A stretch of 63,528 nt of DNA, the filler included, from Asterionella formosa (lineage: Eukaryota): NCBI GenBank assembly GCA_002256025.1. It is 20 parts of 20 records of this genome, joined end to end, with 100 filler letters (N's around TTAATTAATTAA, not from the genome) between each part and the next. Parts side by side here need not be neighbours in the genome. Positions count along the whole stretch, not along the records: positions 1 to 19,789 come from NKIB01003549.1; 19 more parts are not named here. One strand, given 5' to 3'. The notes under the pieces were generated by a model. That model had not been told where the DNA came from. It did no database searches and worked only from the letters and a program-made list of their open reading frames with translations. Positions 1 through 30,906 of this stretch are shown here, one piece after another; position 1 is the stretch's first letter, and every line of letters begins with the position of its first letter. A program made the position numbers and the translations under genes.

Positions 1-1
1 A

Positions 2-522: not shown

Positions 523-627
523 GGAAAGTAGGAGGAGTGATCTAAAATTGAGTTGCATTTCAGTTTGCTTGTTTACCGGACACTTCGACATTTACGTAGG
601 TGAGATATGAACAGGCTACATACAATG

Positions 628-712
628 AATTCTATACACGATTGTAAAACAGGACAGAATCCAGAATCCGTGCGTTCGTATACCATACTTGATGTCGAAA
701 TAGGGCAACAAA
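628..712 (+). repeat. dispersed repeat R1, copy 1
   Basis: aattcta-acacga...caggac-gaatccagaatccg...cgtat-ccat-cttgatgtcgaaat is shared with 43951-44030. Confidence 0.8.
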
Positions 713-897
713 TTGTAAAATACAATGCATGTATGAAATCGTGCATGGATTTTGTACTGACACTCAATGCACCATATGAAAAGCATTTTGAGTTACCGGT
801 AGCAAGCAGTACCCATGTCATGCTATTTCGATGTGGTGTTGGATATGATCTCACATCATGACAATAAATAGCAATTCAGATCGAATTTTTTGGCCTG

Positions 898-1260
898 CTA
901 AGATTTAACTGGCACCAAATGGTCCAACTTTGAATCTTCAGGAAATTCATCAGAGGAATTGTCACTTGTAACATCAGCAGGTACAGCATATGCCTTCCCA
1001 AGTTTAGCAAGAACTTTATTACTCTCTTTGGCATTCAGCTCCTCACCTTTCATTACCTTCATGACAGGAGCCGACTCAAACAGTTTGTCATGCAGAATTT
1101 GTGCATTAGTGGCAAAGTGATTTTTGAGCTTGGGATAGTAGTCTTCAAGCACATGATCAAATATTTCACATACTTGCAGAGATGTGATTCCTTGTCTCTG
1201 GAGTGTTACTGTGTCTTTACTGAACTTTAGTATGTGCTTAAATACCATTTGTAACTCCCT
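898..1260 (-). pseudogene. degenerate hAT-like (RNase H-fold) transposase fragment of the oomycete/diatom type
   Basis: TVTLQRQGITSLQVCEIFDHVLEDYYPKLKNHFATNAQILHDKLFESA resembles the T-x-x-LQ...V-x-x-(I/L)FD-x-V-x-EDYP...A-x-I(V/L)H...FESA block of stramenopile hAT-like transposases (recognised from memory); no intact ORF, CpG-poor. Confidence 0.55.
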
Positions 1261-1424
1261 CACTCCCACAATATTGCATAAGAGAAGCAAGAGCATCGAC
1301 CCTCTCAATTTATAAGTTGATCTCAAAGAAACATTTTATCATGGTATACTGAGATGACCATGATGTTACACTTTCTGTGATTACCACATGAGGATTGTAT
1401 TGTCTTAGAGCATCCTACATCTAG

Positions 1425-1755
1425 GTATGCACAAAGGAAACCTTAGCTATATTATTTACATCTGTAGAACGAAATATTTTTGTCCAGAAACACATGCTTG
1501 TCAATTTGTTTAGCTATTTTTTGTTGGGATTAATAGCAAATAAAACATACGCCGATACAGGAAGTCAGCAGTATGCTGGCCAATGAAAATCAATAGCCCT
1601 TAATGATCCACATGTATCGCTATTTAGCATTATACTCGACTAAATATACTAATCTAACCGACATACCCATCCACAGGAGCATCGTCTTACATTTAAAAAT
1701 TATATTTCTTCTACAGAGGGATTCTTGAAAAGATGTAAAACTAGCCGGGTTAGTC
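1425..1755 (+). repeat. dispersed repeat R2, copy 1
   Basis: Colinear similarity with 31070-31386 (tgtagaacgaaata...gctggccaa-aaaatcaatagccct...gctatttagcattatactcg...cagaggg...ggttagt). Confidence 0.85.
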
Positions 1756-2114
1756 CACATGGAACATCTGTCATGTGCAGATAGGATTTTTTGCTCTGGC
1801 ATGTCTCTACTTTGAACTTTTAGTAGAAGCCTCGTTCTTAAAGGATACAAATCAATTTAGCTCGTCCATTTTTTCTTTGTTCAAATATTTTTTGATAAGT
1901 TTAGTAGTAGAAACATCGAGACCTCCTCCCTTGCATAGCTCGATAAGCATCATCATCATTGCTTGTTGTTCACGTAGTAACTGCCGCAACCGATCCATAG
2001 TTCTGCAAACGTGGAAATTGAAAACACATACTAAGTTACTACAGATTCAGGTGTACCAGGAGCCTACAGGTAAGGCTACGTAGTGCTTTGGTTGAACGTC
2101 GCCTCCTCCCCACC

Positions 2115-3071
2115 ATGGTGGATACCCCCATCCCCAAGGAAACGACGATAATTGAAACCACTTTGAATGTTGCAGCTGCAGAATCCTTTAAGGAAGCATC
2201 AAACACAGGAGGAATGGCGACAAGCGATCATGAAGCTATTGATTTCGAAGCAGAATACTTGCTGCTTATGAATGAACCTTCATACAAAACCAACTACAAT
2301 GCAGTCGCAACGATTCTCACAAACAACACAACAGCGCCATATCTACCGACTAAGGACACAATGCACAACTCAAGGCAATACCAGGTAGCGGACAGTAGCA
2401 TCAAAAACAACGACAATCGAAGTCACAGAATTTCCAGTGAATGGAATACCAAAAACTACGAGAAACATGCAGCAGGTATTCTAAAGTCACCAGTGCGATT
2501 ACAACAGCAGAACGACGAAATGAATAAATCAAGACAATCCAAGGCGGCGGATATGAGCATCTGTAACCATGACAATCAGAATAACAACATCTACAATGAA
2601 TGGAATACAATAACCGATGTGGCAGTGGACATTAACATCAACAACAATGATAATCTGAAAAACAAAAACTACAATGAATGGCATACAAAAACCGACGTGG
2701 CAGCTGACATTAACATCAACAACAATAATCAGAACAACAGCTTTTACAATGAATGGAATACCACAAACAACATGGCAGTAGACATTAACATCAACAATGA
2801 CAAGAAGAAGAACCACAGCAGTGACAATGAATGGAATACAAAAAATTCCGCAAATGATAATCTAGCACAGACAGCAGAGCAGTCATCAGCACCATTTGAC
2901 CCAATTAACCACGCAATGAAAAACTCAAGACAACCCAAAGCAGTAGGCAATTGCATCAACAACGAAGACAATCGAAGTCACAAACACAATGCATCATTGA
3001 AGGAACATACTCCAGCACGAAGGGAATGGTTGGAGGAACGTCATCCTTGGGCCCATCATTGGCCCCCCTAA
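2115..3071 (+). CDS. Asn-rich repetitive ORF carried by the 1999-3165 insertion (ORF1-like fragment?)
   Basis: 318 open codons from ATG 2115; repeated NEWNT..DVAVDININN and MxNSRQ...DNRSH motifs; no recognisable domain. Confidence 0.45.
   Translation: MVDTPIPKETTIIETTLNVAAAESFKEASNTGGMATSDHEAIDFEAEYLLLMNEPSYKTNYNAVATILTNNTTAPYLPTKDTMHNSRQYQVADSSIKNNDNRSHRISSEWNTKNYEKHAAGILKSPVRLQQQNDEMNKSRQSKAADMSICNHDNQNNNIYNEWNTITDVAVDININNNDNLKNKNYNEWHTKTDVAADININNNNQNNSFYNEWNTTNNMAVDININNDKKKNHSSDNEWNTKNSANDNLAQTAEQSSAPFDPINHAMKNSRQPKAVGNCINNEDNRSHKHNASLKEHTPARREWLEERHPWAHHWPP
2593..2845 (+). repeat. 75-78-bp coding tandem repeat, three copies plus a partial
   Basis: acaatgaatgg(a/c)atac recurs at 2593, 2671, 2746 and 2824, with gacattaacatcaacaa in each full unit. 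Confidence 0.9.
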
Positions 3072-4798
3072 TGCTTATCATATTCCCCCCGTGTCTATCC
3101 AGGCACAAGTGCGATTATTAGCTTAGTTTTAATGTACTTTAAACATTTTATTTACCCTCCTCCTTCTGCCGCAACCGATCCATCACCACCACCTGTTGGT
3201 TGCACCAGATGAGGGACTATTACAGCTAAAATGGAAAGAGTTGTACTAACTAAAAGTGCTAGTTAATTATAGGCAGATGTGCTATGTAATTGGAATGCTT
3301 CTAGTAGTAGTAGGTTTATTTAGCATCTAAGCATCATTGAGGATGATTGTCATTGATTTGCCAATTGTTGACTCTATTCCCAATTGTTGTCCTCTATGAT
3401 CATCTATGTGAAGATTCCACCATTACATTCTATTCGATTGCACTTCCACAATAAAGAAGATGAGGCCCCAGCCCTTTCCTTGCTTGCTGGCCATCTGTCT
3501 GAATATTGCCAGCCAGTTACATGGAATTCTGGCTGGAGCTAATGTTGTTTCCAAAATATTTTGCACCTTCAGCTGCATCTCGAAAATTGTAAGTCAACAA
3601 TGCTCTCTCCATGACATCTCAAATGCAGCTGTCCATCAGTGAGTCAAGGGTGAATTGGGAGGGTTATTGTCTAAATCTATTTACGATAAAATTATAGATG
3701 CTTATGTTTTCATTAACTTACTTTGAAAACATACTATTGCCCAAATTTCGATTCATGGCATCTTGCAGTATCAAAGCTTGGTTTGATGAAAATGTAACTT
3801 TGTCAAAACAAGTATGTATGGAATTTCTTGTAAGTGTTTTCAGGGATGTATCCTTTGGTTACAGGTGGGGTGCTCAAGAAATGCTTTTACTGGTAAAGAT
3901 ACATAATCAAGGTAACTGGTACCCTTGTACCCTGGTGGAGTACTAGGTACCAGTAGTACCATTGGCAAAGCATTCAGGCAATTAGCATATACCGTACCCA
4001 TAGTAAGTACTGGTAAAAATCTCGAGTCTGAAGGTCGAAACATGACATCTGAATCCTATCGTATGTATCTGGACACGACAAGTCCTATGTGGTGCTGAGT
4101 GTTGCAACTATGTATACATACCCGGTATGTACTGGTAAACAACAAAAATAGTATGTCCTTCCTATTCAGTCATAGCTATAAGCAAGCAAAATATAAACTA
4201 GTGCTGAACTTATCACGACGAAAGCATATGCCGCCGGACACAGAGAAATACAGTTACCAATTGTTTAATTCTACTAATGTGTGCTCTATAAATTCATTAC
4301 ATTCCTTGCTGGGTCAGCATACTGCAGGTAGCAGTAGTACGCTGTCTATCATAAATCCATAAATTGAAGTACTGGCACATACCCACATATGTATCTTCCA
4401 ACATACCGGTACTACATACTGTTGATGTTCACCATTGAATGACTTTATCAGAGGTATGCTGCAATATTCCTCTGCTAGGTATCTAGATTAGTTCGAATAC
4501 CGGTGGCAGAAAAATGCAAACTATATTTATTAGCCACCATCAGCTACGGGTACTGTATACATATGCACACCCAAAACAAATTCAATGATGACACTTACCA
4601 CCTACCCGTCACAATTATTTATCTATGGCCTGTCGTTGTTGCCCTCCCATGGCAGATCCGCGATTTGATTTCCCCCTCCGTCGCTTAACATATAAGCAAA
4701 ACTAGATATTGTACATCATCATGGTGATCTCACCCTTCAAGGGTGACAAGGGCAAATTCGAGACTCTGCCAATTGTTTTTCGTTCCAGACAAAGTGTC

Positions 4799-6032
4799 AT
4801 GTCGAGCAATTCAATTCTGGACGACGGCTTAAGCGATAGACGATCGCCAGATGGAGAAGAAGTTGTCAACGACAACAACAGGAAAAGTTGCTCCACCAAT
4901 GGAACTCCTACAGTGGAGCATGTGGAGCGGCCTGAAATTAGTGAAGACGAAATCTATCGTCCAAGCAATGAATACGTGTTGGTACGTTCGCTTTGTTGAT
5001 ATCGCTGTTTTGGAATAGCTGTACTTTGGCATGAACCACAACCATTGTTAACCCACAAGATCCTATAGAACATTGCATTCTTTTCGTTTTTAGGATTCAT
5101 GGCCGTGCAAGCCATCTTTGCCCTTGTGGCTCACTCTGAATCCTTATTAACCGATTCGGCCGCCATGTCCGTCGACGCTCTCACATATCTATTCAATCTT
5201 TGTGCAGAACGCATAAAATCACGTCCCTACACTCCTGCAGAAATTGACATGCCAAGATGGAAACGTCTCCGAACACGCAAATTGAAACGGTTGTATTTGG
5301 AACTGGTGCCTCCCTTGATTAGTGTTTCCACATTACTTGCAGTCACCATCGTTGCCTTTCAGGTTAGTATCGAAACCTTGTGGAACTACGGTGATACATC
5401 GAATAAAGAAGATGATGTCGATGATGTAAATGTTGGAATCATGTTATGTTTTTCGGCTTTGAATTTACTTTTGGATTTGGTGAATGTCATGTGCTTTGCA
5501 AAGGCACATCAGGCATTTGGATTGAATACTTCCATTATTGCAACACCCGGACAGCAGCAGAAGGAATTACCAATGACAGAACGGACACCTCTCTTAACTC
5601 AATCATCACAGGGTGGTATTGAAGTCGAATTAGAAGCAATGTCTGTGGACCATTTGGAGGACGAGGAGGAGGACGACAATGATAACGATGGGATTAGAAT
5701 GAATCTGAACATGTGTTCGGCATGGACAGTACGTTGAAGTAACATTGCTGCTGTATTGTTTGCTCGACTTTATTTCGCTGACATTTTTCTTGTTGTACTT
5801 TATTTAGCACGTGTGTGCAGACACTCTTCGATCCATTGCTGTCTTGATTGCAGCTGGTATTGCGTCCGTCTTTCAAGGAGTTCAGAATGATGCAGCAGAT
5901 GCAATGGCAGCCATGGCTGTTTCTATCATTATTGTTGTATCTCTATTTCCATTATTACATGGATTATTCTTGACAGCTCAAGAAATTCACAGCTTGCAAA
6001 TGAAGCAAAACGGAATGAGCCTTTGCAAATAG
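4799..6032 (+). CDS. cation diffusion facilitator (CDF/cation efflux) family transporter, 3 exons
   Basis: Exons 4799-4981, 5069-5728 and 5808-6032 join in frame across GT-AG introns. TM2 SESLLTDSAAMSVD and TM5 NLNMCSAWTHVCAD (HxxxD) motifs. An upstream ATG at 4721 is an alternative start. Confidence 0.88.
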
Positions 6033-6071
6033 GGATGTTTAGGAGAAAGGACAGTTAGATAATACTAAATA

Positions 6072-7169
6072 TCACAATGCTAGCATGGCATCATTGAGCT
6101 TCGAAAAGAACTCGTGCACACTTTGTTTGGGCTCGTTTACATCTAGCACATCATCCACGTTCAATACAACGCCAGTTGTATCCACCATATGCTGCATAAC
6201 TTGCTTAGCATCTTTCCAACTGCATCGTTGTGACGCCACTGCAACACTAGGTTCTACTCCATACGTTTGATGCCACCAATGGGCTGGAATGACAAGCAAG
6301 TCGCCCGTTTGCTGCACTGTTGACCACACTGTTTGTAAATGCGGGAAATCGGCTTGTAGCAATGACGGTGACGATGCAATGGTGGATAAATACTCCAGTC
6401 GTTCCGCCTCGTCCAAATTTTGATACATGTCCCTTGCAGATGGGATTGTTTCATGTCGATGTGCATATAGCCGAAAGTCGGATTGCCACCCTGCACTCAA
6501 CCCTCGGTCGTCCCAGGACGTTGATGGCAATCGATAACTGCCTAATAGTTCATCCACAACATGTACATTGTCATTTGGTGGCTCTATAAATCTCCATATT
6601 TTGGTTCCTTCCAAACATATGCTTGTTCCCGTCCATTCAAATGGGTCTCGATGTAGTGTTGACATGGAGCCTTCCCCAGCAAAAACGACACAGTCTGACG
6701 GCACAAGGTCTGTAGGAAAGTATTGAAACCAATCTTCATTAGAAAATACAGATTCCTTGACATTTTGCAATTCTTGCCTAATCTCATTGAACATTGGCTC
6801 GTCCAGCAATCCCTCCTGGAAACACCAAAATGCATCGTCATGTGACGATTTCAACATGATGTAATCAATGGCTTGTTTCATTCCGAGGTCATAAATGTCT
6901 ATGGCGATTTTTCTTCTCCGTTGTAGTTGAACTTGAAGAGATGGTTGTTGCAATATGGCTTCGCAAATAGCTTCACATTGTTGGGCTGTCAATACGTGTT
7001 CAATAATGATGGGGGTTTCTCTAGTGGTGGATGCTTTATTATTGCTGTCGTACACATGATGATGTCGAGCCAAAAAGTCCTGAACGGAAACTCGTGGAAT
7101 GTCGACGTGATGTTGAAATGCTGCCGCGACAGAAACGACAGCGACGAAGGCGATCCACAAATAACTCAT
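6072..7169 (-). CDS. JmjC/cupin-like 2-oxoglutarate Fe(II) oxygenase with signal peptide
   Basis: STLHRD (HxD), GTKIWRF and GDLLVIPAHWWHQT motifs; hydrophobic N-terminus ending VSVAAA-F. Confidence 0.9.
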   Translation of the reverse strand: MSYLWIAFVAVVSVAAAFQHHVDIPRVSVQDFLARHHHVYDSNNKASTTRETPIIIEHVLTAQQCEAICEAILQQPSLQVQLQRRRKIAIDIYDLGMKQAIDYIMLKSSHDDAFWCFQEGLLDEPMFNEIRQELQNVKESVFSNEDWFQYFPTDLVPSDCVVFAGEGSMSTLHRDPFEWTGTSICLEGTKIWRFIEPPNDNVHVVDELLGSYRLPSTSWDDRGLSAGWQSDFRLYAHRHETIPSARDMYQNLDEAERLEYLSTIASSPSLLQADFPHLQTVWSTVQQTGDLLVIPAHWWHQTYGVEPSVAVASQRCSWKDAKQVMQHMVDTTGVVLNVDDVLDVNEPKQSVHEFFSKLNDAMLAL

Positions 7170-7670
7170 GTGATAACATGGACGACAATAAAATGAAATT
7201 TAGTCGATGGATAAGAAAAATTTTCTTTGTGGTCGACTCTTGATTTACCGGTAAGAGCACCAGGTACCCTGGTACCAGGTACAGTAGTCTTGTTAGCACC
7301 TGCTCTCGAGGTAGGAGTACCTGATACCGGGTACCTCGAGTATCAGGAATCAGGACCATCATGTACCAGGGTACCTGGTACAATACACGGAACTCCGTTC
7401 TTTTATGCCATAGGCCGCCGTAGGCTATGTGACGGCATGTCTGCACAGCCTTTCTGTACGGTGCGTCGTGGATACTAGGTACCAGTAGCATGAATTTACC
7501 CTGATGCATGCTGCCGTCGAAGGCGAACGACGATATCAATATGAGATTCATGTATATGTAATAATATAATGAACACAATCGTATCAGGCAGAAGGTGAAG
7601 GAACCAGTGACGAAAAAGGGATGCAAGCCAAACAATCGTTCACTCCTTTCCCAGACAATTGAACGAAACC

Positions 7671-8481
7671 ATGAACAATAAGTACGCCATCACCATCGTT
7701 TTCACAGTTTTCTTTTCTCTTGGCTTGAATAACGTTGACGCCTTTACCACCACATCAAAACCGATTGGTCGGCCTCGCCAATGCTTCGCACCTGCGAAAT
7801 CAACTCGTCATCAGGCTACCAAATTGCAATTGGATCTTTCATCATGGAATACAATCTTGTCCCCAACCAGCATCCATGATGCCTTTAGTGTCGCAACATT
7901 TTTTCCTCAGCCGTTTTGGCTGCTCTTGGTATTTTTGCCAAATTCAGGAATTGCGAAGAAGATTATGGGTGGAATGGGTAAGTGCGCAAGCGAGTATGCC
8001 CAATGGTTAAATTGTGTGTGTCCGTATGTATACCATCGTTGCATATCCATACATGTGGAGAACTCACATGCGTTTAACACCACCACCATTTGTTACAACA
8101 GAAATTGTCACTTTGTGTTGCTTAGTTCACATTTTTATTGTATCAGCATCAATTGTCCAACCAGAAGCAACAGCTCCACTTGCGGAGTTTTCAGGAGTCT
8201 TTGATCCTGCAGGCGATCCTCAAAAGGCTTTTATTGGGATGATGCAATATCCTAATTTTATATCTGAAGAATGGTCCCATGTACTCACATGGGACATTTT
8301 TGTGGGTCGTTGGATTTGGCTAGATGGGATCAAGAGAGGGATTTTCACATCACATTCTGTGTTATTGTGTAATTTCATTGGACCACCTGGTTTATTGTTG
8401 CACTGGGTCACATGTCTAGTTTCAGGCAAGGGCATTGTAGAGAATGAGGTGGAAAGTATTGTGGAGGAGAGAGTAGCCTAG
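7671..8481 (+). CDS. ABA4: ABA DEFICIENT 4-like / DUF4281 plastid membrane protein, 2 exons
   Basis: Exons 7671-7977 and 8102-8481 (gtaagt...caacag intron, in frame). PFWLLLVFLP, WSHVLTWDIFVGRWIWLDG and HSVLLCNFIGPPGLLLH motifs; signal peptide ending VDA-F followed by a Ser/Thr/Arg-rich transit peptide. Confidence 0.85.
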
Positions 8482-9154
8482 AAATGCCATTGAAGCAAGC
8501 AAGGAATGATAGTAAATCTGCATAAATTGACTTTTTAAGGTAATTGTGAACATATTTACTCTCTTTTGACATGTGAGGATGATACCAGCATTATTATCTC
8601 TCTATTTAGTATAGATTGAGATTAGTTATAGAGACTCATAACGACTGAACCTTTGGGAGGCTCCAGTACAGATAAAAATCATTTTGGGTTGCCCAAATAC
8701 CGGTGCGGTAGCATGGCTCATTTGTTCTACCGGTATTATGGAACAAATTGAGCCATATTAGCTACCTGGTACCGTACCGGTAATGCATATACCAGTAAAC
8801 TGGTACTGGTACCAGTGTACGTCCCGGGTACATGGTACAAGGTACCGTAGATGTTCATGTTGCAGTTGATGAGTCCAGGTTGCGCGCCATATTTTCATAT
8901 ACGGTAAATATATTGTTGTTTCGTAGACCTATTTTTCTTACCAGTACAAGAGAGAGATACAATCTACATGTCGTTTTTCCTTTTATTGGTATCCCAGCCA
9001 TCCTTGTTCGTGTACATATGATCAATCATTATACCAGGTACCAGGCACTGGCAGTCTAGTCTACCGATATTATTGGTTGTATGTATGATTGGGAGTCCTC
9101 TGGTCTCATTCAGTCATCACTCGGCGAAACCAAAGGCTCAACAACCCTCTCATC

Positions 9155-10075
9155 ATGTCCTCCACGACGGATTCGTCAAGTCTGGTGACCCTTCTAGATC
9201 CCTCCGTCAACTCCAAAACCCTTCAAACAGCCAAAATAATCTCGTTGCCACATCCCAGCGACAATGAGGCGCAAGACTTCATCTTTCTCCCTCGTACTGC
9301 TGCTTCTAACCAACCCGCCATAATTCTTCAAGTTCAATCCTTCCAAAAGTCCTACGGAAGTTTCCTGGTGGGATCACGCGTCATTTCCAATGGTGCGTTG
9401 CATGTTGCTACTCCAGTGGATCCCTTGTTTTTTGTGTTGGAGGCATTCGCAGCTGCTCCTCAAAAGTGGCAACCTCTAGAGCAATTATTAGTGGGAGTAC
9501 CAGACTGCGTCCAGGAAAGCATTTCATCCCCCCTGCAATACAAACATTTGTGTTGCACAAACGATCAACTTGGAGACGACATGATTTTGTACAAGTTTCA
9601 AACGGAGTTGGCCTTGGCATGGCTGACCAAAAAATTCAATGCCGCCAAGCAGGTGTTGTTGGACCAGCAGCAACGGGGTGTACTATCTGGTGGTGCTTTT
9701 ACCAAGACGTTTCATCATGTCCCGGATACCCCTTTGGATCAAAGTGTTCTGGAACAGGAATCCTGCCAAGTTGTCTGTGACTTTCTTTCTGCGGAATGGA
9801 CACGAACATTAATGCACCAGTTGAACCTTGCCATCATTAGTACTCCAGTAACAACCACACCCAAGCGCCAATGGGGAGAAATGGCAGGAGCTGACTCTCA
9901 TGAGGTGTTGCTAGAAATGACACTTGGCAATGTTGTATCTGTTGAAAAGGCCAAGCAAAAGGAAGGAGTCCAAAAGAAACTCAAGGCACAAACCAGTGGT
10001 CTCAAACAATTGGCCAAAGTCAAGACCAAGGGAATGAAGAGCATGAGTTCCTTTTTCAGTGCCAAGACCACCTAA
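9155..10075 (+). CDS. RNASEH2B: ribonuclease H2 subunit B
   Basis: ISLPHP and SFLVGSRVISNGALHVATPVDPLFFVL motifs, plus C-terminal PIP box KGMKSMSSFF. Confidence 0.88.
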   Translation: MSSTTDSSSLVTLLDPSVNSKTLQTAKIISLPHPSDNEAQDFIFLPRTAASNQPAIILQVQSFQKSYGSFLVGSRVISNGALHVATPVDPLFFVLEAFAAAPQKWQPLEQLLVGVPDCVQESISSPLQYKHLCCTNDQLGDDMILYKFQTELALAWLTKKFNAAKQVLLDQQQRGVLSGGAFTKTFHHVPDTPLDQSVLEQESCQVVCDFLSAEWTRTLMHQLNLAIISTPVTTTPKRQWGEMAGADSHEVLLEMTLGNVVSVEKAKQKEGVQKKLKAQTSGLKQLAKVKTKGMKSMSSFFSAKTT

Positions 10076-10168
10076 TAAAAGCCAAGGGAGGCTGCTACTA
10101 CACAAAGTCAATAAAATATAGTTCCTACATCTATCCATACGTATGTACAGCGCCATTCCATGGCTCAG

Positions 10169-11121
10169 TTACTGCCGCAAATGCGTCACTTTGCAATTGA
10201 TATCTTTGCAAGCACCTTGCTGTTGTCGATGCGAGACAAAGTTCGATGCCAACAACATGGCACATCCTCCAATATTCACAACACGATGCCAAAATCCTTC
10301 ATGTATGGTATGTAGTAACTCATGAGGGATTCGATGCAACAGCCATCCATCGTGCGCGTTTGCAGCGTAAATGAGAATCAGACCAGCAAATGCTGGAATC
10401 GAAATCCTCGCTTTCTTATGCGACAGGAAATTCATGGTCGCTGCTGTTCCCCCGACTGTTGTAGTACCACGGGAACGAGTAGAGGGTGAGTATTCGATGA
10501 ATGAAACAGAATATAAGATGGTCGGTAAAAACTGCAAGATATAGAAACTTCCTTACCCGGCAATACAAAGAAAATGGCGACGGAATGGCCGAACTCATGC
10601 AACCATTCCATGTGACCCGGCGCTGCCATGCCCAAAAGCGGGAACAAAATAGTGACAATGGGCAGTACGGTGCAATCAATTACACACAAGATTGATGCCA
10701 AATTGGCCAAGCGGACCAACCGTTGCGATGTGGTTTGCCAGAAGGACTCCTTGTCCGTCGCGGAGGGAGAGGGGGTATCCACAATTTCCTGGCAAAAGCC
10801 ACCGCGATATCGAATGCTGGAGGGACCGGCGGGAATAGACACTTGACGCATCATGGCTCTATCGGACGGTTCTGATAGAATTTGCTGCAGTTGGATGGAT
10901 TTTCCGAAGAAATCAGATTCTTCTGACGCTTGTCGAAAAAAGAGCAGCGACGGTTTCTTGGAATAACTACTGCTCGGCCGTTTCTTCGGAGGCTCTGAGG
11001 CGACGAGGCTATGACTTGTTGAAGCGTTCATTAAGACCAGCGATGCAACCAAAACAGGAGAGCGCAACGCAAGCATTCGAAGTAGCGCAATGTGCACTGT
11101 TGATTTTCGAATTCTGCCCAT
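10169..11121 (-). CDS. MerC-domain membrane protein, 2 exons
   Basis: Exons 11121-10557 and 10455-10169 (gtaagg...caacag intron, in frame). ASILCVIDCTVLP matches the MerC TM1 S-x-LC-x-(I/V)-x-C motif; further TM helices and a Cys/His tail. Start could be 11076. Confidence 0.75.
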
Positions 11122-11623
11122 TGTCGTTCGGCAATGATTTACCAATACGACTGAACAAAGTTGGCCGTTGTTCCAAATATGAAGTCTGCAATTTTTTGTC
11201 GTCATCCACCCGAGCCGAGGCCTAAAAAAGGGCCTGACGGCAGCTATAACATACGTACCTGGTACCAGGTACCCTGGTACCATCATAAAAGACACATGAG
11301 ATGTAGCTGGTACCCTGGTACCTGGTACCTACGATACTACATACCAGCATCCAAATTTAGAAATGCGTGGTTTCTGTAGGAGACTGGTAGTAAACTAACT
11401 GTACTACGTATGCCTGTCAGTTTTAACTATGTAGACGACCTGACACAATGTACCCGCATGGCACGTAAATAGAATGTATGTGCGGTAGTCGTCAGTTGAC
11501 GACGTCATGAGTGCGTCAGATTTGACATCTGGCGGCCGTGCTTCAATTTTCTCGCCCCGCTTGTTGTTTGCCTATTACCGGTACCGGTATTCTGCTAGAA
11601 TGTCTTTTTCCATTTACCGGTAT

Positions 11624-11695
11624 ACATTCCTCAGACTGCACCTATTCTTCGGACACCTGTCAACGTCAACAGCCTAACAGACACATTCTGACATA
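11624..11695 (+). repeat. dispersed repeat R3, copy 1
   Basis: acattcctcagac...tcttcggacacctgt..ac.tcaacagcctaacagaca.a.tctga is shared with 56392-56460. Confidence 0.85.
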
Positions 11696-12340
11696 GCAAA
11701 AGGGGTGCTGATCAGGATTATAACAGAGATAAAAATTTATTATTTAATATCGAAAAAATTAGAATCATTACAAAGATACAATTCACAAATATATTTCAGT
11801 AATGGCAAAACAGGCAGCCTTTTTCTTCTTGTCTCCTCAAAAATGTGCATCAGACTCAGCAAAAAATAGCAATGGGCAGTTAATTATTACCATCTGCCTG
11901 ACAATCATCATTACTCAAATGCATGAAATAGTTAGCTACTGCTTTCTTTTTTCAAGAAATCCATTCATCACTGCTTGTTTCTCTTTTTTTGTTGCGGGAA
12001 GTTTCAATGGATTATGCTGTGTAAGAGTTCACAGCAGCATCAAGGAACATTTGAAAGATTGCAAAAACAGATGTAAAAGAGGGGCCCTATGCATGGCAAA
12101 TGAAAATGAGGTTTCCGCCAGCAAGCCAGCCAAGGCCAATAGAAAAGATTCAGCTCTGTATAAGTATGCTGATTTGTGCTGTTTATACCAGAACTTGCAT
12201 TTGATTTGACAGCATCAACTGTGATGGAAAGTCGACGAAGTAATTTCGGTAGGTGATTGAAAGCTTGAAAGGACATGTGATATTCTTAATCGCATGGATG
12301 CACTGGAGCTACTATAGAAGGGTATTTACAGCCTATCACT

Positions 12341-12584
12341 GGGAGAATGGCTTAGTTGTGGTTAGCACTCCTCACGAGGAGACGGTTTCGATTTCTGCAT
12401 TATCTGCCTGACTTCCTTTTATGTACTAGTCCCTAGGTTTCCGGTGTGTGTGGCTGACAAAGAGACAGGTCCTAGCTATTGTACCGTATTTACAAATAAA
12501 ACCAGCTCAAATCATTTCCATTCATGTGGGCACCAGTGCGATTATGGATGGTATAACATAATATAAGATTTATTTAACATTTTT
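12341..12584 (+). mobile_element. tRNA-derived SINE, full-length copy A
   Basis: Head gggagaatggcttagttgtggttagc...ggtttcgatttctgcatt (A/B boxes), shared body gacaaagagacaggt, AT-rich tail. Flanked by 18-bp TSD tatttacagcct(a/t)tcact at 12323-12340 and 12585-12602 (1 mismatch). Confidence 0.85.
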
Positions 12585-12771
12585 TATTTACAGCCTTTCA
12601 CTAAACCAAGAAAAAGGGATTATGAAGGCTTTCTTCAAGCATATTAGTCTGGACCTTTTACCATGTCATATGGATTCAATGTTCAAGCTGTTTGAAACAG
12701 TAAGAAGTAACAGAAACATGAACAACAAATGCAGCTCATTAGTTTTGCAATTTTTTACAAGTGATGAAAAT

Positions 12772-12930
12772 GGGGGATCGCTAACTTGGCTAGCATGCCT
12801 TCCAAGGTGGGATTCGATTCCTGCATTCTCCACTTGTCTTTCTTTTTCATGTAGTCATTAAGATTCTGGGTGCATGGGTAATAAAAAAGAGACAGGTCCA
12901 TTGTACTGTATGGACGAATAAAACCAGTAC
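12772..12930 (+). mobile_element. tRNA-derived SINE, copy B (head and body; 3' part diverges)
   Basis: ggattcgattcctgcattctccac...ctttttcatgtagtc...aaagagacaggtcc...gaataaaaccag aligns with copies A and C; no convincing TSD found. Confidence 0.75.
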
Positions 12931-13546
12931 TGATCCCATCATTCCAGCACCCAAAATCATTTTGTTTGTTCGGATGATACTGGGTTCTTCTTGGTAAGTA
13001 AGTATACAAACACCAGGACTGGCAACGCCAGGAAGCGCTACGCATTCCACCCTTCTAGCAAATGAGCGAGTAGTCTTAAAGCGCTTCATATAAGGGAAGT
13101 TAAATTTTAGAAGCGATGATAAGCATAATTACAAGAGTAGCAATAATAATTGCTGTTGATTACTCCTCCCAAAAATCATTTCCATCATTGTTGCTGTTCA
13201 AGACAAAAGTGGTGTCTTTGTTGATTAATTTAATTACATGACATACATTAAATTTATAAAAATAGTGTTGCCTACACTGTATCTGCAACGATACACACAG
13301 ATAAACATTTCGGCGCAGCAAAAAATGTGTTGCTGCAAGTACAAGCAACATGGCTGAGATACAAAAATTCGGGCTTTTATATTAGCAACATATTTTTCCT
13401 TTTTGTGTCTCTATGATTTAGGCCACCATAGAAAAGGCCGATTTTGTCGAATTTTTGGACAACAATAGCTCAACGTTGGCTAGGCCTGAAGGCAATTTAG
13501 ATACCTAGATAGTTTTCAAACAGTATCAGTACGGTATATTTCTTCC

Positions 13547-13877
13547 GGCAAGAAACTGCAGAAAGGAACTTCGGTTTTTACTATAGCAAATAAACAGATT
13601 TCCCCTGAGTTTTCTAGTCTTTTTAGCATAGTAGCTAAAAAAACTGAAGTTCCTTTCTGCAGTTTCTTGCCAGAGCGATCCATTATCCTGATGATATATA
13701 GAGTGGACCTACACCCCTACTTTGACAGAAGACTGTATGTAAGCATATGGAAAGGGTTTCTATTGGTGTAAGCTCCACAGAGCATTATATATATTTATTT
13801 TGTGAAAAATACGTGTTTGATTAGTCTGACTCAATATTATTTTTCTAGCCCTACCTCGAGCTAGGGGTTCAGATGCA
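13547..13877 (-). repeat. dispersed repeat R4 containing a 33-bp inverted repeat
   Basis: Arms 13547-13579 and 13639-13671 are reverse complements (1 mismatch). About 13600-13877 is the reverse complement of 59257-59553. Confidence 0.85.
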
Positions 13878-14081
13878 TTGAAAAGAGAATCTGTTTCCAC
13901 GAGAAAGCCCAAAACTGTCGTTTTGTTATCCCAGACAGATTCTTTTAAGCAGAAGCTAACTCGACCAAGATCTATAGGCCAGACGGCCTATGCTATATTC
14001 GTATTCAATCAAGCTCAAGATATAGCACTGTGCGCAACAAACTAAACCATCATTCTATCTATGATTTCTCTTTGAGTCAGT

Positions 14082-17000
14082 CTATGCACGAACAGCCTGA
14101 TTGAGGACCTCCTGGACACCGCGTCTACCAGCCTTACTCTTCTCACGTTTGAGTTTTGCCTCGCCATGTCGCAGCCACTCCACAGGGTCGGCTCCAGCCA
14201 GATCGACTAGACCTGTTTCCTTTAAAATATCTTGTTGACGACACAGCAGGCGAAGATAAGCCATGTCACCTTCCTTAGGCGGTGACCCATGAACTTGGAC
14301 GCATTCCTGAAGCATCATGAGTGCAGATCCCACCTGCTCACGTTTGGCATAGTATTCGATTAATGAGCCATAGGATGCAAGATCCATTTTGCGACCATCT
14401 GATTCAATCTTTTCCTTGAATTCCAAAGCGCGAGATAGGCGTTTGTTATTCACCAACATTTGTAAAACCAGTCGGTCACTGTATTCGTTAGGTTCAACAC
14501 CATACCCCTTGAATTGCTCGTCGTGCACGGCTAAAGCCCGGCCAACCTTTCCGGCACTTGTGACGACTTGGAGCATGCCATTCACCATATGACAGTCAAC
14601 GAGATTGTCTTCTTTGGCCTTTTGAACGCAAAAGTAGGCATTGAGAATGTTCCTTCTTTTCAACCAAGCATTGTCAACCCGGTTCGGCATATTCTCTCTC
14701 AGAAGTGGAACCAATGTTATCATTGATGGGTAGCTTAATGTTGCAGCAAAGGCTTCGCGAACTTTGACGAGTCTATTTCGAGGCATTCCAGGTAGGACCG
14801 CCTCGAGATCCTCCAAGTCGTAGTCTAAGGCTGACTTTCCTTCAACAATAGACGCCATATCCTTGCTATTGTCACTTTCAACTGGGAACGATGCCGATAC
14901 GTCTTCGCCATTTCCACCAGACATTTGATCGTCAACAGAAACGGAATCTTCATCTGAGGGTGCGTTGAACAGATTCGCAATCATGTTGTCAAAGTCATCC
15001 TCCGTGTTTCCACCAGGTTTCATATTTGTGAGCAACTTCTCAATTTCAGGATTTTTCAACATGCTTGCCATTGTGCCATCTGGATCGTAAAAACCAGCGG
15101 AGCCTCCCATCTCTGGAGTTTTCTTCAAGATATCATCCAGCTGTATATTGGGTCTATCTTTCCCTAAATATTCCGATTTCGATGCGCGCTGCTCATTGAA
15201 ACTTGCGTCTTGGATTGTTGTCATCTTACGAATTTTAGTTTTGGAAATTTTTAAACCCAACGAACACGTAGCTTCTTCGGCGAAGTCAGGATCAGTTGCC
15301 ACTTTCTCGTCAAACTCTTGTTTCATGGATTTGTACATCTCTCGGGCATCCTCCTCAGGCATGACTGATCCACCCATTTCACTTGACATCAGAGTCTTGA
15401 AGTGTTCATATGTGAATGAGCTTTCATCATCTTCAGCTTCGTCAAACAGAGAATTGTTCTATAAAGTGGGGGAAGAGGATAAAATGTGAGTGTGGAAGCC
15501 AATAACGCCCAAGTTTCGGGAGGTGAAGGATGAGAGATCGTGTCTTCAAATATTATTCCCATGCATCGATCCAGTGAGAACAATGACTAGGCTCAATAAA
15601 GAGAGTGTTCCGCTGGCAACGTGCAAGTTAAGCATGGGATTGTAATGGAAACAAATACTGTTACTCACCGTCGCACTGGGCCGTTTGTTTGATGTTTGTG
15701 CTGCAGAGAGTTGCCCTTTACTTGCTTGGGCTTCTTTTTCAAACATGGTGAGGCTAGCTTGTACTGCCTTAGGACGGGTCTTCCACTTCATTTCATCTTG
15801 GTCGAAGTAGTACTCCTCCTGCACTTCCTCTGTTTCAGATGTGTCAATTTCTAAAGTGGTGGTCGTGTTGCTACGTTTTGATACCTGAGTTTTCTGCTCA
15901 GCAATGACTGCCTTAGGATCCACCATTCTCGATTTCCATTTCATTTCATCTTGATCGAAATACCACTCCTCTTTCGGCTCGGTAACTTTCGGTGTCATCA
16001 CTTCTGGCTCTGAAATTTTCGGCTCCACAACCTTTGGTTTGTCCACGACCCTACCAGTTCGATTGCTTGGCGTCCTGAATGCCCATTCACTGGCCTTCTC
16101 ATCCCACACGAAACCTCCTTCTTCTTCAAGCCCTGTCCGTGGTACGACTTTTCCAGACTCAGCATTGTAGTACATACTGTTGGCATGTTGGATTATTTCG
16201 GGTATTTCCTCGTCGACATCCCCTTCGTCGAGCATAAAATTTGGGTCGGGCATTCCTGTCCAATCGCGACCTTGAATCAAATGAAGACGCCGCATAGTTT
16301 CTTCGTGGCTATCTTCAATGCGTTTCTGATAATCGTCTTCGTACATTTTATAGAACTGGGGATCAATTGTATCCATGTCAAATCCCCAGTCCGGGTCTTC
16401 TTTGCCGCCTTCGTACTTGGCTCGACGCAGGCGCTTCGACATTTCTTCAGCCCCTTCGTCTTGAAGATTCATACCACTCAATCCCACCTCTGTTCCACTT
16501 GTTCCGGGAATGGTATTGTCGTGGTACTGCGGTTTTTGGATGGAAGCAATGAGTCGAAGCGAGTTTTCGTGAAGGTAGCCCTTGTTTTCCATACCACTCC
16601 ACATGTCACCCATACCCTTTGGATCAATGGCAGACGCGCATGCCTTCATCAATGCTGTAAGGACACGATTGTCTTTTCCGCCATACTCCCTTTCTTCAAA
16701 GGCAGTCCGGCTCTTGCGAGCGTTCATTAGCGAGGCAACGGCGGGACTTACGTCGCCAGCGTCGGACAAAGCAACATCCTGACCATCCCCAGTCCAATTC
16801 TGTACTGCATTCCCTGGCATTACCATGTGCTTGACACCTCCACTCACTTGTGCCAGTCCATTGACAATATCTTGCTGTTCCAATCCTGTCCCACGTAATG
16901 CCGCTAAATGTGATTCAGGTCCAATAGTTCTTAAATGATCCATCCGTCTAACTTCACTTGCCAACAAAATAGCCTTTGCCGTAGCCGAGTCTCCTGCTGC

Positions 17001-18470
17001 GGCGGCACACAACATGAGTGCTGCAACAAATCCATCGTCTTGCACCACTTCTGCTTGTTCCGCCTTGATAACAATATCTCGGGTCATTCGACCGTGATAG
17101 AGGGTAAGTTTTTCTCTACGTCGGAATCGTCGTGAGGCCCCATTCTCATATCTAATGGAAGTTTCATGAGATCTTGCTACAGCCTTAAGGGCGGCAGTAA
17201 AACACAGGGTAGTTGGCTTGACCTTAAATTGTCTCATTTCATCCAATATGTTAATGGCTTGTTCTGCTCGTCCCTGTGCGGCCAAAAGTCTTAAAATGGC
17301 ACCATAAGCCATGGGATCGGCGTCTATTCCATTGATCCGCATTTGCTTCCATTTTTCCCATCCCAGCTTTCCTGCTTGAGCCCGAATACTTGACGCTACA
17401 TGTCCCGCGTTGCACACTTTGAAACAAGCAGCCAGCAAGGAAGTGTACGCCGGTAGATCTGGTGGAACTCCGGCCTCCTTCATTTGGTCCATCACTGAGT
17501 TGCATCCTTCAAAGTCACCAATACGTGCATGTATATCAATTAAAATGGACCAACTGTAGACGCAAATGGGTACATCACGTTGAGTCATGATCAACATTAC
17601 TTTTGCGGCTTCCTTGGGTGTTTTGCAGCAAGTCAGAAGAGTAGTATAGCACTCTTGACCAAAAAGGGTGGTTGGAATCTTCAATTCTTCGATAACGTGA
17701 TTTAATGCATTGTGCAGTCCAATGGGCTTTGCTTTAGTACCGTTCTTGTCGCGGTACGCCCGAAGGACAAGGGCCACTTGTCGATCGCTGGGCGGGGGGA
17801 CTAGTGGAATGGCCGCCTTTTGTTCGTCAGTGGCCGCAACCAGTTGCTTGGCTGAGAATTTTTCGTAGCGCGCCATGGTTTTCTGTACCTTTTTGAGCAG
17901 TCGGCCGTGATAGTCTCCCAAATACACGGGTTCCGGCGACGGCGTCGATGACAGGTGCGCCGTGTTGCCCATCAAATCATCGAGTAGGGCGTCACTGAAT
18001 CCATATTCTCCTCCTCCCAAGGCCGACGTTTCCTCTTCTTTTTTGCCGCCTCTCTTCCTCCATTCGATCAGTTCTTGTGTTTGTTGCTCGACCCACTGTC
18101 GCCTGGGACCTGCCGTGGACCCCGGTGCTCCGTGCTTCCCCTTCCTTTCAAATTCCACTGCGGCCTTTCGTCTGTTTTCTTTCTTGACTCCCTTTTTGTT
18201 CACCTTACGTTGTTTGAAGAAAGATTTGCTACCGTCGTTACGTTTGAACCGGAATTGTGTATGGCAGTGCAGGTGATTGGTGGTGATGGGAGACGACGCG
18301 AGTGTTGGCACAGCGATTGCAATGGAACTGTAACATCGACGACGCAGTTCATTGATGGATGTTCTTGTTTGGATTTCGGCAGATCCTCTGCTACTGCTGC
18401 TGAACAGTGACAAACTATGAACCGATAACGGAAGTCTTCTCTTTGTTGCAGCCCGTGAGATCATCATCAT
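14082..18470 (-). CDS. pentatricopeptide-repeat (PPR) protein, about 1392 aa, probably mitochondrial, 2 exons
   Basis: Exons 18470-15669 and 15458-14082 (gtgagt...ttatag, phase 0) join the two long ORFs. PPR motifs (VYSWSILIDIHARIGD, LPAYTSLLAAC, MAYGAILRLLAAQG, LASYGSLIEYYAK); Arg/Ser-rich N-terminus. Confidence 0.9.
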
Positions 18471-19173
18471 GGTGAGTCGCTTTTTGATTTGGAAGCATGT
18501 CGAGATGTATTTGATTTTGTTATGGAATATTATACCGGTAGTAGCAGTAGCATTCTTCCTCGGTATTAATTTAACGAACGGTGAGATTCGATCCCCAAGG
18601 AGAATGATTGATGGCTGGTGGTACCTGGTACCTGGTAGCACTAGCCATGGGCGGTACCAGGTAAAGGTACCTAATCATACATACAGCTACCGGTACTACT
18701 ACATACCGGTACATACATCTAGGTACGGAGTACCTTAGTAGCAGATGCAGAGGCACGGACAGCCATCGATTCTTCGTCTTGGGCTGATTCCAAGCACGAT
18801 GGCGGACGGACGAGATCCAGACAATCCACCATTGCCTGTCATGGCATCACCCGACTCAGCTTTTATGACCTGAGATGTGACAATATATTTCTGAAAAATA
18901 TGGAATGTTTGCTGTTCTTCCTCACTGATTGATGGTGAGTCCTTGATGATAGTAGCTGTTGTTACTGTTGAAGATGTTGTCATTGGAAGTCGAAGCCAGG
19001 GCCTAAATTGAGATTTCTTGAACACAGAGAACTCCATGCCTTTCTTCCTTTTCTTGAACTTGTTTTCAAAAAAAGCGACTGACAGCGTGGTGCAGCAGCA
19101 GCTGCTGCCTTCTTGTTGTTATGTTAACCTGCAAAAAATGTCAATTAAATTTTATAGTAAGACATTAAAGCTA

Positions 19174-19789
19174 CCGTATACTTCATTGTCCTGGACCCCC
19201 TATACATTTTTCGAGGTGGCACCAAATACCCAATAATTTTCTAGACATAGACAGAGTAATGTGCTACATCTAAGCCGCGTATTACGTGAAGTGACCATCA
19301 CGTAAATAAGCCTAGTTGATTTTGAATGGATCACATGAATTAGTTGAATACATCAAAATGCTTACTTGAATATATCTATATATTATCTGAATACATCACG
19401 TTAATTATTTGATCAGAGTATCATGCATGCATTCCTGATCATCACTATATTACGTGATCACCTTCACATAATTATTTGAAATACTTCAATTAATTCTGTA
19501 ATTCAGTTCACATTGCCTTAAATTTTTGTTCACGTAATGGTTCACGTAATTTATTAAATTTTTTTACGTATTTTATAAGTACTATCAAATAATGTTGATT
19601 ACTAATTCACCAACCGGTATTTCACATAACATGGGAAACAAATCTCGATATGCAATCAAACGAAGCAGTTCTTTCAGAATGGCATCTTCAGTCTTGAGAA
19701 GGCAGGCATTATGAGAAATCTGTAAGGACAATGCAAGACAAACAGAAGCCATGCATTCTGAATGAAAAAATCATTCATTCTTGAAGAGG
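19174..19789. mobile_element. left end of a TA-flanked TIR element (pogo/Tc1-mariner-like) with subterminal TCACGTAA repeats
   Basis: TA|ccgtatacttcattgtcctggaccccc matches 25/27 to the reverse complement of 34466-34492|TA; followed by tcgag(g/a)tggcaccaaa, also seen at 33915; truncated by the contig end. Confidence 0.65.
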
Positions 19790-19889
19790 NNNNNNNNNNN
19801 NNNNNNNNNNNNNNNNNNNNNNNNNNNNNNNNNTTAATTAATTAANNNNNNNNNNNNNNNNNNNNNNNNNNNNNNNNNNNNNNNNNNNN
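19790..19889. other. artificial contig linker N44-TTAATTAATTAA-N44 (first of 19)
   Basis: Identical 100-bp spacers start at 19790, 21117, 22444, 23771, 43658, 44984, 46302, 47628, 48954, 50280, 51605, 52930, 54255, 55580, 56905, 58230, 59554, 60878 and 62202. Confidence 0.99.
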
Positions 19890-21216: not shown

Positions 21217-22443
21217 GTGATCGCCCGATGTAAATTATAACTACAACGTATCCTGGAAACCAGCTCAACTCTATGCTATCATGTGAATTGTTTCATCGTA
21301 AATCTATTGTAAACATGATCATAATTCTAATCACAAGCATTGCTCAAAATAGATTGAAATGGATCGTAATTTAACTATCAAATTAAGCAATGCTATCTAT
21401 TAATCTACATGCCAGCGACCCAACGTTTCTCTCTCTACTCGGCTCAATGTATATCCCTTTCTCGCTCTGTCTTCCTCTGATCTGAATCGTGTGCGAGGCA
21501 GTGCCCTACTGATGCTGCGTCTCTTTCCCTGCTGTAAGTGTCATTCTGAACTTGCCGACTATTCCGTTGTTTGATTGTTTTTATTTTCCTATGCATGCTG
21601 TTACGGTTACAATGAGAAGGAATGGTTTGTTAGCTAGTCATGTTTATTTTCCTATGCATGCTGTTACAGTTACAATGAGAAGGAATGGTTTGTTAGCTAG
21701 TCATGTTACATTGACACAAGAACACGCAATTCCATCGTATCCTCTTGCTTCACTTACCACAAATCAATGCAACTGATGCATAAGTCTGTAATAGTAACTT
21801 GTCAGTAAGCCAAATTCTTGAATAAGTAAGTTTCGGGTATCCAATGTTGTGGAATAAAACTTACCGATTCATTTTTCTCATCTTAACTTTGAGAGAATAT
21901 AAACGTTTTGTTAGTTTTGTTCCAACAGAAGTGAACAGGTCCAACGAGCGACAAGAGCACTTATGCAATTTGGTTTGGTTTTGTTTTACATTGGTGCTCC
22001 CCAACAAGCGAAACGAGCTGTTGAATCAACTGAGAAAAAAGGAAATGTGGCTGCGATTAGTTAACAATTTGTTGTTTTGCTGCCTGTCTCCCAACGATTG
22101 TCATCCAAGTACCACATTGATGGCTTCATTACCTTAGACATTCTCCATCCTTCGAAGGCGCAATGTGTCGAAGTCACAATGTTTTTCGTTATGTATTGCG
22201 AAAACTTTCTTTTCTTGTCATGTGCTTTACTACGATGTATCTTTTCATGAAGCAGCAGGCATTGTCTGTTAACATGACAGAAGGATTTCAAAAATATATA
22301 TGCCATGAATATAGAAATAAAATTTGTAAATATATATATATATATAAAATTCAAAGGCGCTCTCGATATGGAACATCTGATATGGTTTAAATGATCATAC
22401 TCGCATATACATAATTCGAAAATACTCAATGCATTATATGTTC
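21217..22443. repeat. contig nearly identical to 22544-23770 (haplotype or repeat copy); contains a 63-bp tandem duplication
   Basis: Same length (1227 bp), same ends, about a dozen substitutions. 63-bp unit duplicated at about 21579-21706. Confidence 0.95.
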
Positions 22444-22543: not shown

Positions 22544-23770
22544 GTGATCGCCCGATGTAAATTATAACTACAACGTATCCTGGAAACCAGCTCAACTCTA
22601 TGCTATCATGTGAATTGTTTCATCGTAAATCTATTGTAAACATGATCATAATTCTAATCACAAGCATTGCTCAAAATAGATTGAAATGGATCGTAATTTA
22701 ACTATCAAATTAAGCAATGCTATCTATTAATCTACATGCCAGCGACCCAACGTTTCTCTCTCTACTCGGCTCAATGTATATCCCTTTCTCGCTCTGTCTT
22801 CCTCTGATCTGAATCGTGTGCGAGGCAGTGCCCTACTGATGCTGCGTCTCTTTCCCTGCTGTAAGTGTCATTCTGAACTTGCCGACTATTCCGTTGTTTG
22901 ATTGTTTTTATTTTCCTATGCATGCTGTTACAGTTACAATGAGAAGGAATGGTTTGTTAGCTAGTCATGTTTATTTTCCTATGCATGCTGTTACAGTTAC
23001 AATGAGAAGGAATGGTTTGTTAGCTAGTCATGTTACATTGACACAAGAACACGCAATTCCATCGTATCCTCTTGCTTCACTTACCACAAATCAATGCAAC
23101 TGATGCATAAGTCTGTAATAGTAACTTGTCAGTAAGCCAAATTCTTGAATAAGTAAGTTTCGGGTATCCAATGTTGTCGAATAAAACTTACCGGTTCATT
23201 TTTGTCATCTTAACTTTGAGAGAATATAAACGTTTTGTCAGTTTTGTTCCAACAGAAGTGAACAGGTCCAACGAGCGACAAGAGCACTTATGCAATTTGG
23301 TTTGGTTTTGTTTTACATTGGTGCTCGCCAACAAGCGAAACGAGCTGTTGAATCAACTGAGAAAAAAGGAAATGTGGCTGCGATTAGTTAACAATTTGTT
23401 GTTTTGCTGCCTGTCTCCCAACGATTGTCATCCAAGTACCACATTGATGGCTTCATTACCTTAGACATTCTCCATCCTTCGAAGGCGCAATGTGTCGAAG
23501 TCACAATGTTTTTCGTTATGTATTGCGAAAACTTTCTTTTCTTTTCATGTGCTTTACTACGACGTATCTTTTCATGAAGCAGCAGGCATTGTCTGTTAAC
23601 ATGACAGAACGATTTCAAAAATATATATGCCATGAATATAGTTATAAAATTTGTAAATATATATATATATATAAAATTCAAAGGCGCTCTCGATATGGAA
23701 CATCTGATATGGTTTAAATGATCATACTCGCATATACATAATTCGAAAATACTCAATGCATTATATGTTC
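22544..23770. repeat. contig nearly identical to 21217-22443
   Basis: Colinear end-to-end match. Confidence 0.95.
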
Positions 23771-30827: not shown

Positions 30828-30828
<1 letters not shown>

Positions 30829-30905
<77 letters not shown>

Positions 30906-30906
30906 G
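30829..30906. repeat. (TTG)26 microsatellite
   Basis: 78 bp of perfect ttg repeat. Confidence 0.98.

Follow-up and report, generated by a model that had tools for sequence, protein, structure and literature searches.

Short interspersed elements (SINEs) derived from transfer RNA (tRNA) genes are common in eukaryotes and are also known in other stramenopiles, namely the oomycetes. They correspond to the SINE2/tRNA class of Repbase, examples of which are the plant p-SINE1, Au and TS SINEs and the vertebrate tRNA-SINEs, the latter with tails derived from long interspersed elements (LINEs). Whisson et al. reportedly described, in 2005, tRNA-related families named infSINEs in the oomycete Phytophthora infestans. 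In this study, a repeated element was analysed in a stretch of 63,528 bases from the genome assembly GCA_002256025.1 of the diatom Asterionella formosa, which is called the window hereafter. We consider it likely that this element represents a tRNA-derived SINE family, that is, a family of non-autonomous retroposons without long terminal repeats (non-LTR) in the diatom nuclear genome.

The element resembles the tRNA-derived SINEs in its length of about 240 bp, in the tRNA-related head at its 5' end, which carries A and B boxes, in its tRNA-unrelated body and in the lack of any open reading frame (ORF). Similarly, it is flanked by target-site duplications (TSDs) within the 7-20 bp range typical of LINE-mediated insertion, some of its copies are 5'-truncated, and its copy number is high. 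Like the SINEs whose partner recognises a specific tail, it has a 3' end without poly(A). Two features set it apart from the tRNA-derived SINEs. Its head measures no more than 62-65 nt because a hairpin of some 12 nt is all that is left of the anticodon arm, and a run of four to six T stands behind the head in nearly every copy. These comparisons were made by description and not with database sequences. The likeness to the infSINEs, which are tRNA-related SINEs of a stramenopile belonging to a different host class, is likewise one of class and not of aligned sequence.

In diatoms, 13 annotations of putative SINEs covering 1,454 bp were reported for Phaeodactylum tricornutum (PMC5859163), SINEs of Cyclotella cryptica were obtained with RepeatMasker (PMC7466962), SINEs were said to have been reported earlier in only two other diatoms, with Skeletonema costatum being named (PMC8147415), and a SINE category is listed for Pleurosigma pacificum (PMC12803021). 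What SINEs do in diatoms is described as poorly understood (PMC5859163, PMC7466962, PMC8147415). The A. formosa element has the host group and the class label in common with these putative SINEs. According to the portions of those papers that were available, however, the latter are the output of automatic pipelines without a described head, boxes, TSDs or consensus, whereas the anatomy, the insertion signature and the distribution of the A. formosa element are reported below. The two were set apart by their descriptions.

Copies of the element and their insertion signature

The window is composed of 20 contigs, two of about 19.8 kb (1-19789 and 23871-43657) and 18 of about 1.2 kb, with linkers between them at 19790-19889 and at 18 further places, each linker being TTAATTAATTAA between two stretches of 44 N. 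Two full copies of about 243 bp on separate contigs had been claimed in the original prediction from the sequence, each with its own near-perfect TSD, and both claims were confirmed (Table 1). Copies A and B lie on the first long contig and copies C and D on the second. Copies A and C were 67% identical over 251 columns (blastn, E 1.7e-13), and for each of their TSD pairs none of 2000 shuffles was as good. The duplication around copy C, which like that of copy A adjoins the element directly, measures 18 bp, or 19 bp if one ambiguous G is counted. The TSD pair of copy A is unrelated to that of copy C, and so are the flanks of the two copies; TSDs were present in both of the full copies having both flanks (2/2). 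Between the TSDs lie 243-244 bp, below the limit of about 700 bp that applies to SINEs, and all six frames have stops, the longest open stretch being 66-67 aa. The layout comprises the tRNA-like head, the T4-6 run, a conserved tRNA-unrelated body, and an AT-rich tail ending in a short T-run (T5 in copy A, T4 in the metagenome relative L001).

Further evidence for insertion was provided by the flanks of copy A. The sequences at 12160-12285 and 12585-12694 belong to another repeat, designated R, which was found at about 85% identity in many contigs of the sequencing runs and in which no terminal inverted repeats were detected. Run X18 holds the exact locus of copy A (record 12, with 1 differing letter in 348 nt), and two further records of this run, 13 and 14, are paralogous to 12585-12694 at about 85% and match from 12585 onward. 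Ahead of 12585, these two records carry a 30-nt consensus which matches 12290-12322, directly preceding the 5' TSD of copy A, at 23/30 positions with one 3-nt gap in an alignment made by eye. Judged from this alignment, records 13 and 14 are an empty site with a single target copy, from which the element is absent. We conclude that copy A was inserted because it is bounded by TSDs and has an empty paralogous site as its counterpart, and that copy C was inserted because of its TSDs.

The copies also have their 5' end in common. This applies to the DNA copies A, C and D as well as to L004a and L004b, two copies on one metagenome contig. Furthermore, eight of the translated relatives of the element (see below) extend upstream, with eight different flanks, and in 8/8 the similarity breaks off at the codon that precedes 'GNGL', the latter corresponding to the first bases of the element. 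For the residue in front of 'GNGL', which was L, W, Q, S or R, a codon with G as its third base was possible in every case. Therefore, these copies begin at the same GGGGAAT ahead of unrelated flanks. The copy on the metagenome contig L008 begins at model position 33.

Partial copies had also been predicted at 12772 and 30915. The first, copy B, is nearly full length (to 12985) and without a TSD. It is the most decayed of the copies, and is 70% identical to copy A over 152 columns (blastn, E 2.5e-11). The second, copy D, turned out to be only a head fragment of about 27 nt, which is followed by a (GTT)27 microsatellite (TRF) and was matched weakly by nhmmer (E 0.7-0.95); for the bases that it has in common with copy C, the chance of one given 19-mer in the window is about 5e-7 by arithmetic. 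Copy E, which is absent from the original prediction and comprises roughly the last 50 bases of the element, was picked up by an nhmmer model built from seven copies. The copies as a whole are 68-91% identical to the consensus and carry indels, internal deletions and truncations.

The proposal that copy C interrupts a pogo remnant was not upheld, since 10 ORFs of 36329-38744 showed no transposase family at E up to 1. An ESM Atlas search with 37571-37966 returned no usable match for this proposal, and blastn found no second copy of the copy C flanks in the window. An N-x-x-E-T stretch resembles the N-x-D-E-T of pogo-type transposases at the level of the motif, and this resemblance was not used as evidence. 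Downstream of copy B lies another repeat, R2 (13103-13180 and 13295-13412), which matches part of a short contig, 53449-53643 (-), at 70-80%. In the first contig it is interrupted by a 114-bp insert, and 12991-13150 is also repeated in the sequencing runs.

Table 1 Copies of the element in the window with their duplications and internal motifs
Feature	Position	Strand	Remarks
Copy A, full length	12341-12584	+	244 bp; 82% to the majority consensus of 7 copies; blastn, nhmmer, alignment
Copy A, 5' TSD	12323-12340	+	18 bp; abuts element; 17/18 identical to 12585-12602
Copy A, 3' TSD	12585-12602	+	Abuts element; 17/18 identical to 12323-12340
Copy A, A-box-like motif	12348-12358	+	1 mismatch to the consensus TRGCNNAGTGG
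Copy A, B-box-like motif	12385-12395	+	2 mismatches to the consensus GGTTCGANNCC
Copy A, T4 run directly past the tRNA-like head	12417-12420	+	Would-be RNA polymerase III (Pol III) terminator
Copy A, terminal T5 run	12580-12584	+	
Copy B, near full length, decayed	12772-12985	+	Model positions 1-208; 68% to consensus; tail missing
Copy C, full length	37949-38191	-	243 bp; 87% to consensus
Copy C, 5' TSD	38192-38209	-	17/18 identical to 37931-37948
Copy C, 3' TSD	37931-37948	-	17/18 identical to 38192-38209
Copy C, tRNA-like head	38130-38191	-	Rfam RF00005, 21.5 bits; fold
Copy C, A box	38175-38185	-	0 mismatches
Copy C, B box	38141-38151	-	1 mismatch
Copy C, T5 run past the head	38116-38120	-	
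Copy D, head fragment	30914-30940	-	About 27 nt; 19 exact bases in common with copy C
Copy E, 5'-truncated 3' end	~3101-3152	+	Model positions ~171-240; nhmmer E 0.0038; local alignment to copy C

The tRNA-like head and its promoter motifs

The head begins exactly at G1 and is about 62-65 nt long. Its acceptor stem has 7 bp and includes G3:U70, and its D stem has 3 bp; the shortened anticodon arm forms a hairpin of some 12 nt, and the T arm, which is normal, and A73 complete the head. The best preserved head, that of the metagenome relative L001, matched the Rfam tRNA model RF00005 with 30.0 bits (E 9e-4, model positions 1-71), above the gathering score of 29, and the first 62 nt of copy C matched the same positions with 21.5 bits (E 0.038). 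The minimum-energy fold of the L001 head is a cloverleaf (z -2.72), in which a 4-bp stem with a 4-nt loop replaces the anticodon arm and the T arm has a 5-bp stem and a 7-nt loop. In the five complete heads, 89% of the cells were consistent with cloverleaf pairing, versus 46-52% when the 3' partners were slid by 1-3 columns. The acceptor pairing and the collapsed anticodon arm that had been described originally were thus recovered in the folds, in the Rfam alignment and in the proportion of paired cells. The heads of copies A and B were too decayed to fold into a cloverleaf.

The A and B boxes announced for the head were also found, in several copies with 0 mismatches. For the A box, C and L004b are without mismatch; for the B box, L001 and L004a are without mismatch, B and C have 1 each, and A has 2. 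All of these were counted as motif matches only, against the eukaryotic consensus motifs. At position 3:70, the pair was G:U in 3/5 heads and A:U in one, with one head unpaired, and the consensus discriminator was A. The G3:U70 pair and the discriminator A73 are identity elements of tRNA-Ala. Since both occur in the heads, a tRNA-Ala origin is plausible on these two features. The head retains no anticodon, and no host tRNA gene was found within the window. A scan of the whole window with Rfam at gathering thresholds gave no match, and a scan of 12300-13000 with E up to 10 gave only chance-level matches to snoR31, mir-375 and the bicoid 3' untranslated region. With ARAGORN at its laxest setting, 6 calls were made in 7 copies, all of them outside the heads and with differing isotypes, and they were rejected as spurious.

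Abundance, relatives and host

The element is present in many copies. Contig pieces matching 12100-13200 at a level of at least 80% numbered 1036 in run X1, 185 in X3, 19 in X18 and 117 in the RNA library X19, counts which mix three repeats because this 1.1-kb stretch also includes R and R2. For the segment of copy B from the B box to the acceptor, the summed depth was 248,952, versus 867-990 for the contigs of the exact locus; this difference of about 250-fold is not a copy number and is readable only as 'many copies'. The family had been called abundant from the window itself, and the many copies in the runs agree with this. The two longest contigs, 39.6 kb together, hold five element pieces, of which that at 30915 has only about 27 nt.

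Members of the family are spread across related genomes. The body motif common to copies A, B and C matched 8 metagenome contigs, and 3/8 carry family members, namely L001, L004 and L008. The other five (L002, L003, L005, L006 and L007) matched the short motif only and were rejected. On L004, which holds two copies, the insertion point of the inner copy lies at about position 92 of the outer one, and the inner copy has an internal deletion of about 20 nt by which the B box was removed. Downstream of the element, L001 (about 484-550) and L008 (about 352-416) contain matching coding-like sequence at different distances. Since both the copies and the downstream flanks are alike, L001 and L008 probably record one insertion with later deletions, in two related genomes or in paralogues.

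With the open frame of copy C, 10 translated relatives, which are spurious ORF 'proteins', were found in ENA/JGI assemblies. A profile of the translated relatives gave 45 cluster representatives with E ≤ 0.001, and 21 of these had E ≤ 1e-10. Of these 45, at least P0158 is false, being a repeat protein of bacteria without relation to the element, and P0174, a weak match of 3862 aa, may also be false. A pattern search of genome contigs gave a single match, in a Bacillaceae genome, which was neither a tRNA nor the element and was dismissed as chance; the same kind of scan gave zero matches in viral contigs.

The long contigs are eukaryotic and encode a PP2A B56 subunit, PPR proteins, a JmjC/cupin protein and others. 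The B56 ORF (40258-41868) is 97% identical to a JGI protein, and its best named matches are all from diatoms, with 91% in Nitzschia, 89% in Cylindrotheca fusiformis, 87% in Cyclotella meneghiniana and 86% in Amphora coffeaeformis. Part of 11700-13400 was found in sequencing runs (20 rows from 16 studies), mostly labelled as freshwater or lake metagenomes and once as 'algae metagenome'. Based on the B56 matches and on the freshwater and lake labels of the runs, the host of the element is a freshwater diatom, probably of the pennate type.

Some other contents of the window were recorded as well. The contig 49054-50279 has a G+C content of 67.7%, versus 31-51% in the others, and encodes 14 ALTTAQ repeats (Pfam PF20080, E 1e-111) within a 408-bp tandem array; this contig looks bacterial, and the assembly or bin therefore looks mixed. 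The contigs 21217-22443 and 22544-23770, each of 1227 bp, are identical at 1216/1227 positions, compared position by position, and are alleles or uncollapsed duplicates. Plavaka-type transposase domains were detected in the ORFs 29003-29614 (-, E 5.8e-8) and 47728-48951 (-, E 1.5e-13), which are remnants or copies of DNA transposons. A piece of a Copia-type LTR retrotransposon with gag, zinc knuckle and Pol beta-barrel domain occupies 57005-58228 (+).

Propagation of the element and alternative explanations

The reading as a tRNA-derived SINE, already put forward in the original prediction, is supported by the 30.0-bit Rfam match in L001, the boxes, the TSDs, the common 5' end and the empty site. 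If it is correct, Pol III would start at the internal promoter formed by the A and B boxes, and some transcripts would pass the T-run behind the head and stop at the terminal T-run, the presence of which (T5 in A, T4 in L001) fits termination at the end of the element. An autonomous LINE would then, through its reverse transcriptase and endonuclease, recognise the 3' body or tail, and target-primed reverse transcription would copy the RNA into the chromosome at a staggered break. The outcome would be TSDs of 18-19 bp and, occasionally, 5'-truncated copies such as copy E and the copy in L008. Pol III transcription, read-through and a LINE partner are what we infer, together with the tRNA-Ala origin, from the features described above. 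LINEs, including LINE/Ambal, were reported in other diatoms in the available portions of two papers (PMC7466962, PMC12803021).

Several results weigh against the SINE reading. A T4-6 run lies 8-12 nt past the tRNA-like head in 6/7 copies examined. In tRNA genes, the Pol III terminator sits at the matching place, just past the tRNA. The run should halt most Pol III transcripts ahead of the body, and a full-length Pol III RNA therefore needs read-through; its location also suggests a tRNA gene, trailer included, as the sequence of which the head is a copy. Contigs of the RNA library X19 contain pieces of the element, and these show no start, no strand and no independent transcription. No LINE-type reverse transcriptase or endonuclease was found in the 86 of 118 ORFs of at least 90 aa that were scanned, the other 32 lying in overlapping frames; the scan brought up no more than remnants of Plavaka transposases and a gag/pol piece of the Copia type. 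The element has no poly(A) or simple-repeat tail. No TSD above chance was found around copy B, for which 1936/2000 shuffles were as good, or around copy E. Copies A and B as well as L004a gave no Rfam match in their heads. ARAGORN called no tRNA in the window and none at the heads even with relaxed thresholds. The covariation in the cloverleaf did not exceed that of shuffles in five heads, which is expected for decaying genomic copies and for only five sequences.

Alternatively, the element would be a retroposon which has a front derived from a tRNA gene and is not driven by its own Pol III promoter, and the T-run would end Pol III transcripts at about 75 nt. Either the full-length templates would arise from host transcripts or by read-through of Pol II, or the head would have no role beyond that of an RNA structure; the element would still be mobilised by a LINE-type reverse transcriptase. 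We regard this explanation as unlikely. It is favoured by the conservation of the T4-6 run and by the RNA-library contigs with element pieces, which exceed the element and enter its flanks, as does a 638-nt contig over 12819-13067. However, every copy with a known 5' flank begins at G1 of the head. This start at the same base argues against random Pol II read-through, and an internal promoter or precise processing would give it. The A and B boxes, moreover, are the best-conserved parts of the element.

It is distinctly improbable, in our opinion, that the element is a dispersed repeat other than a retroposon, such as a DNA transposon or miniature inverted-repeat transposable element, a Helitron fragment or a segmental duplication, which contains a tRNA pseudogene by chance. 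Such a repeat would agree with the partner LINE not being found in the scanned ORFs, with the absence of poly(A), with copies B and E having no TSD, and with a neighbourhood that is a nest of other repeats. However, a search for terminal inverted repeats at copies A and B yielded none that was convincing. No cut-and-paste superfamily is known to generate TSDs as long as 18-19 bp. Copies A and C, both full length, furthermore have unrelated flanks and sharp ends, the tRNA-like unit is always at the extreme 5' end and in a single orientation, and a 5'-truncated copy exists, all of which are features in favour of a retroposon. A functional family of tRNA-like non-coding RNA genes, retained for a cellular role rather than as mobile DNA, is hardly credible, since the conserved A and B boxes and the hairpin that is kept in place of the anticodon arm with differing sequences in several copies are outweighed by the divergence of the copies from the consensus (68-91%, with indels, internal deletions and truncations), by the heads of A and B that are no longer cloverleaves, by the insertion evident from the TSDs and the empty site, and by covariation that is not significant.

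Within the SINE reading, a more far-reaching version can be formulated. Under this version, no SINE family of high copy number would have been defined structurally in diatoms before this one, and it would occur in several freshwater diatom genomes and have an unusual biology. Its head would be a tRNA-Ala gene copied along with its own Pol III terminator, its propagation would depend on read-through or on a route independent of Pol III, and the partner enzyme could make a long stagger fixed at about 18 bp, unlike the variable stagger of the L1 type. We put this version forward tentatively and give it only a small chance of being right as a whole. The novelty in diatoms that the original prediction suggested is fair but modest, as diatom papers, in their available portions, list SINEs as automatic categories. 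Within the same limits of the available text, no structurally characterised diatom SINE family was found in the literature, and the family may already be catalogued in Repbase, Dfam or SINEBase or in the supplements of papers.

The finding is useful and unsurprising, since tRNA-derived SINEs are widespread. It provides a clear SINE example in a group in which, as far as the available portions of the diatom papers go, SINEs have so far been listed by automatic annotation only. The consensus, the ends, the TSDs and the empty site form a real seed model for annotators, and insertions that are present in some freshwater diatoms and absent from others can serve as markers in studies of their populations and phylogeny. 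Finally, the family is a handle on which diatom LINE is active and a natural test of how diatom Pol III handles an internal T-run.

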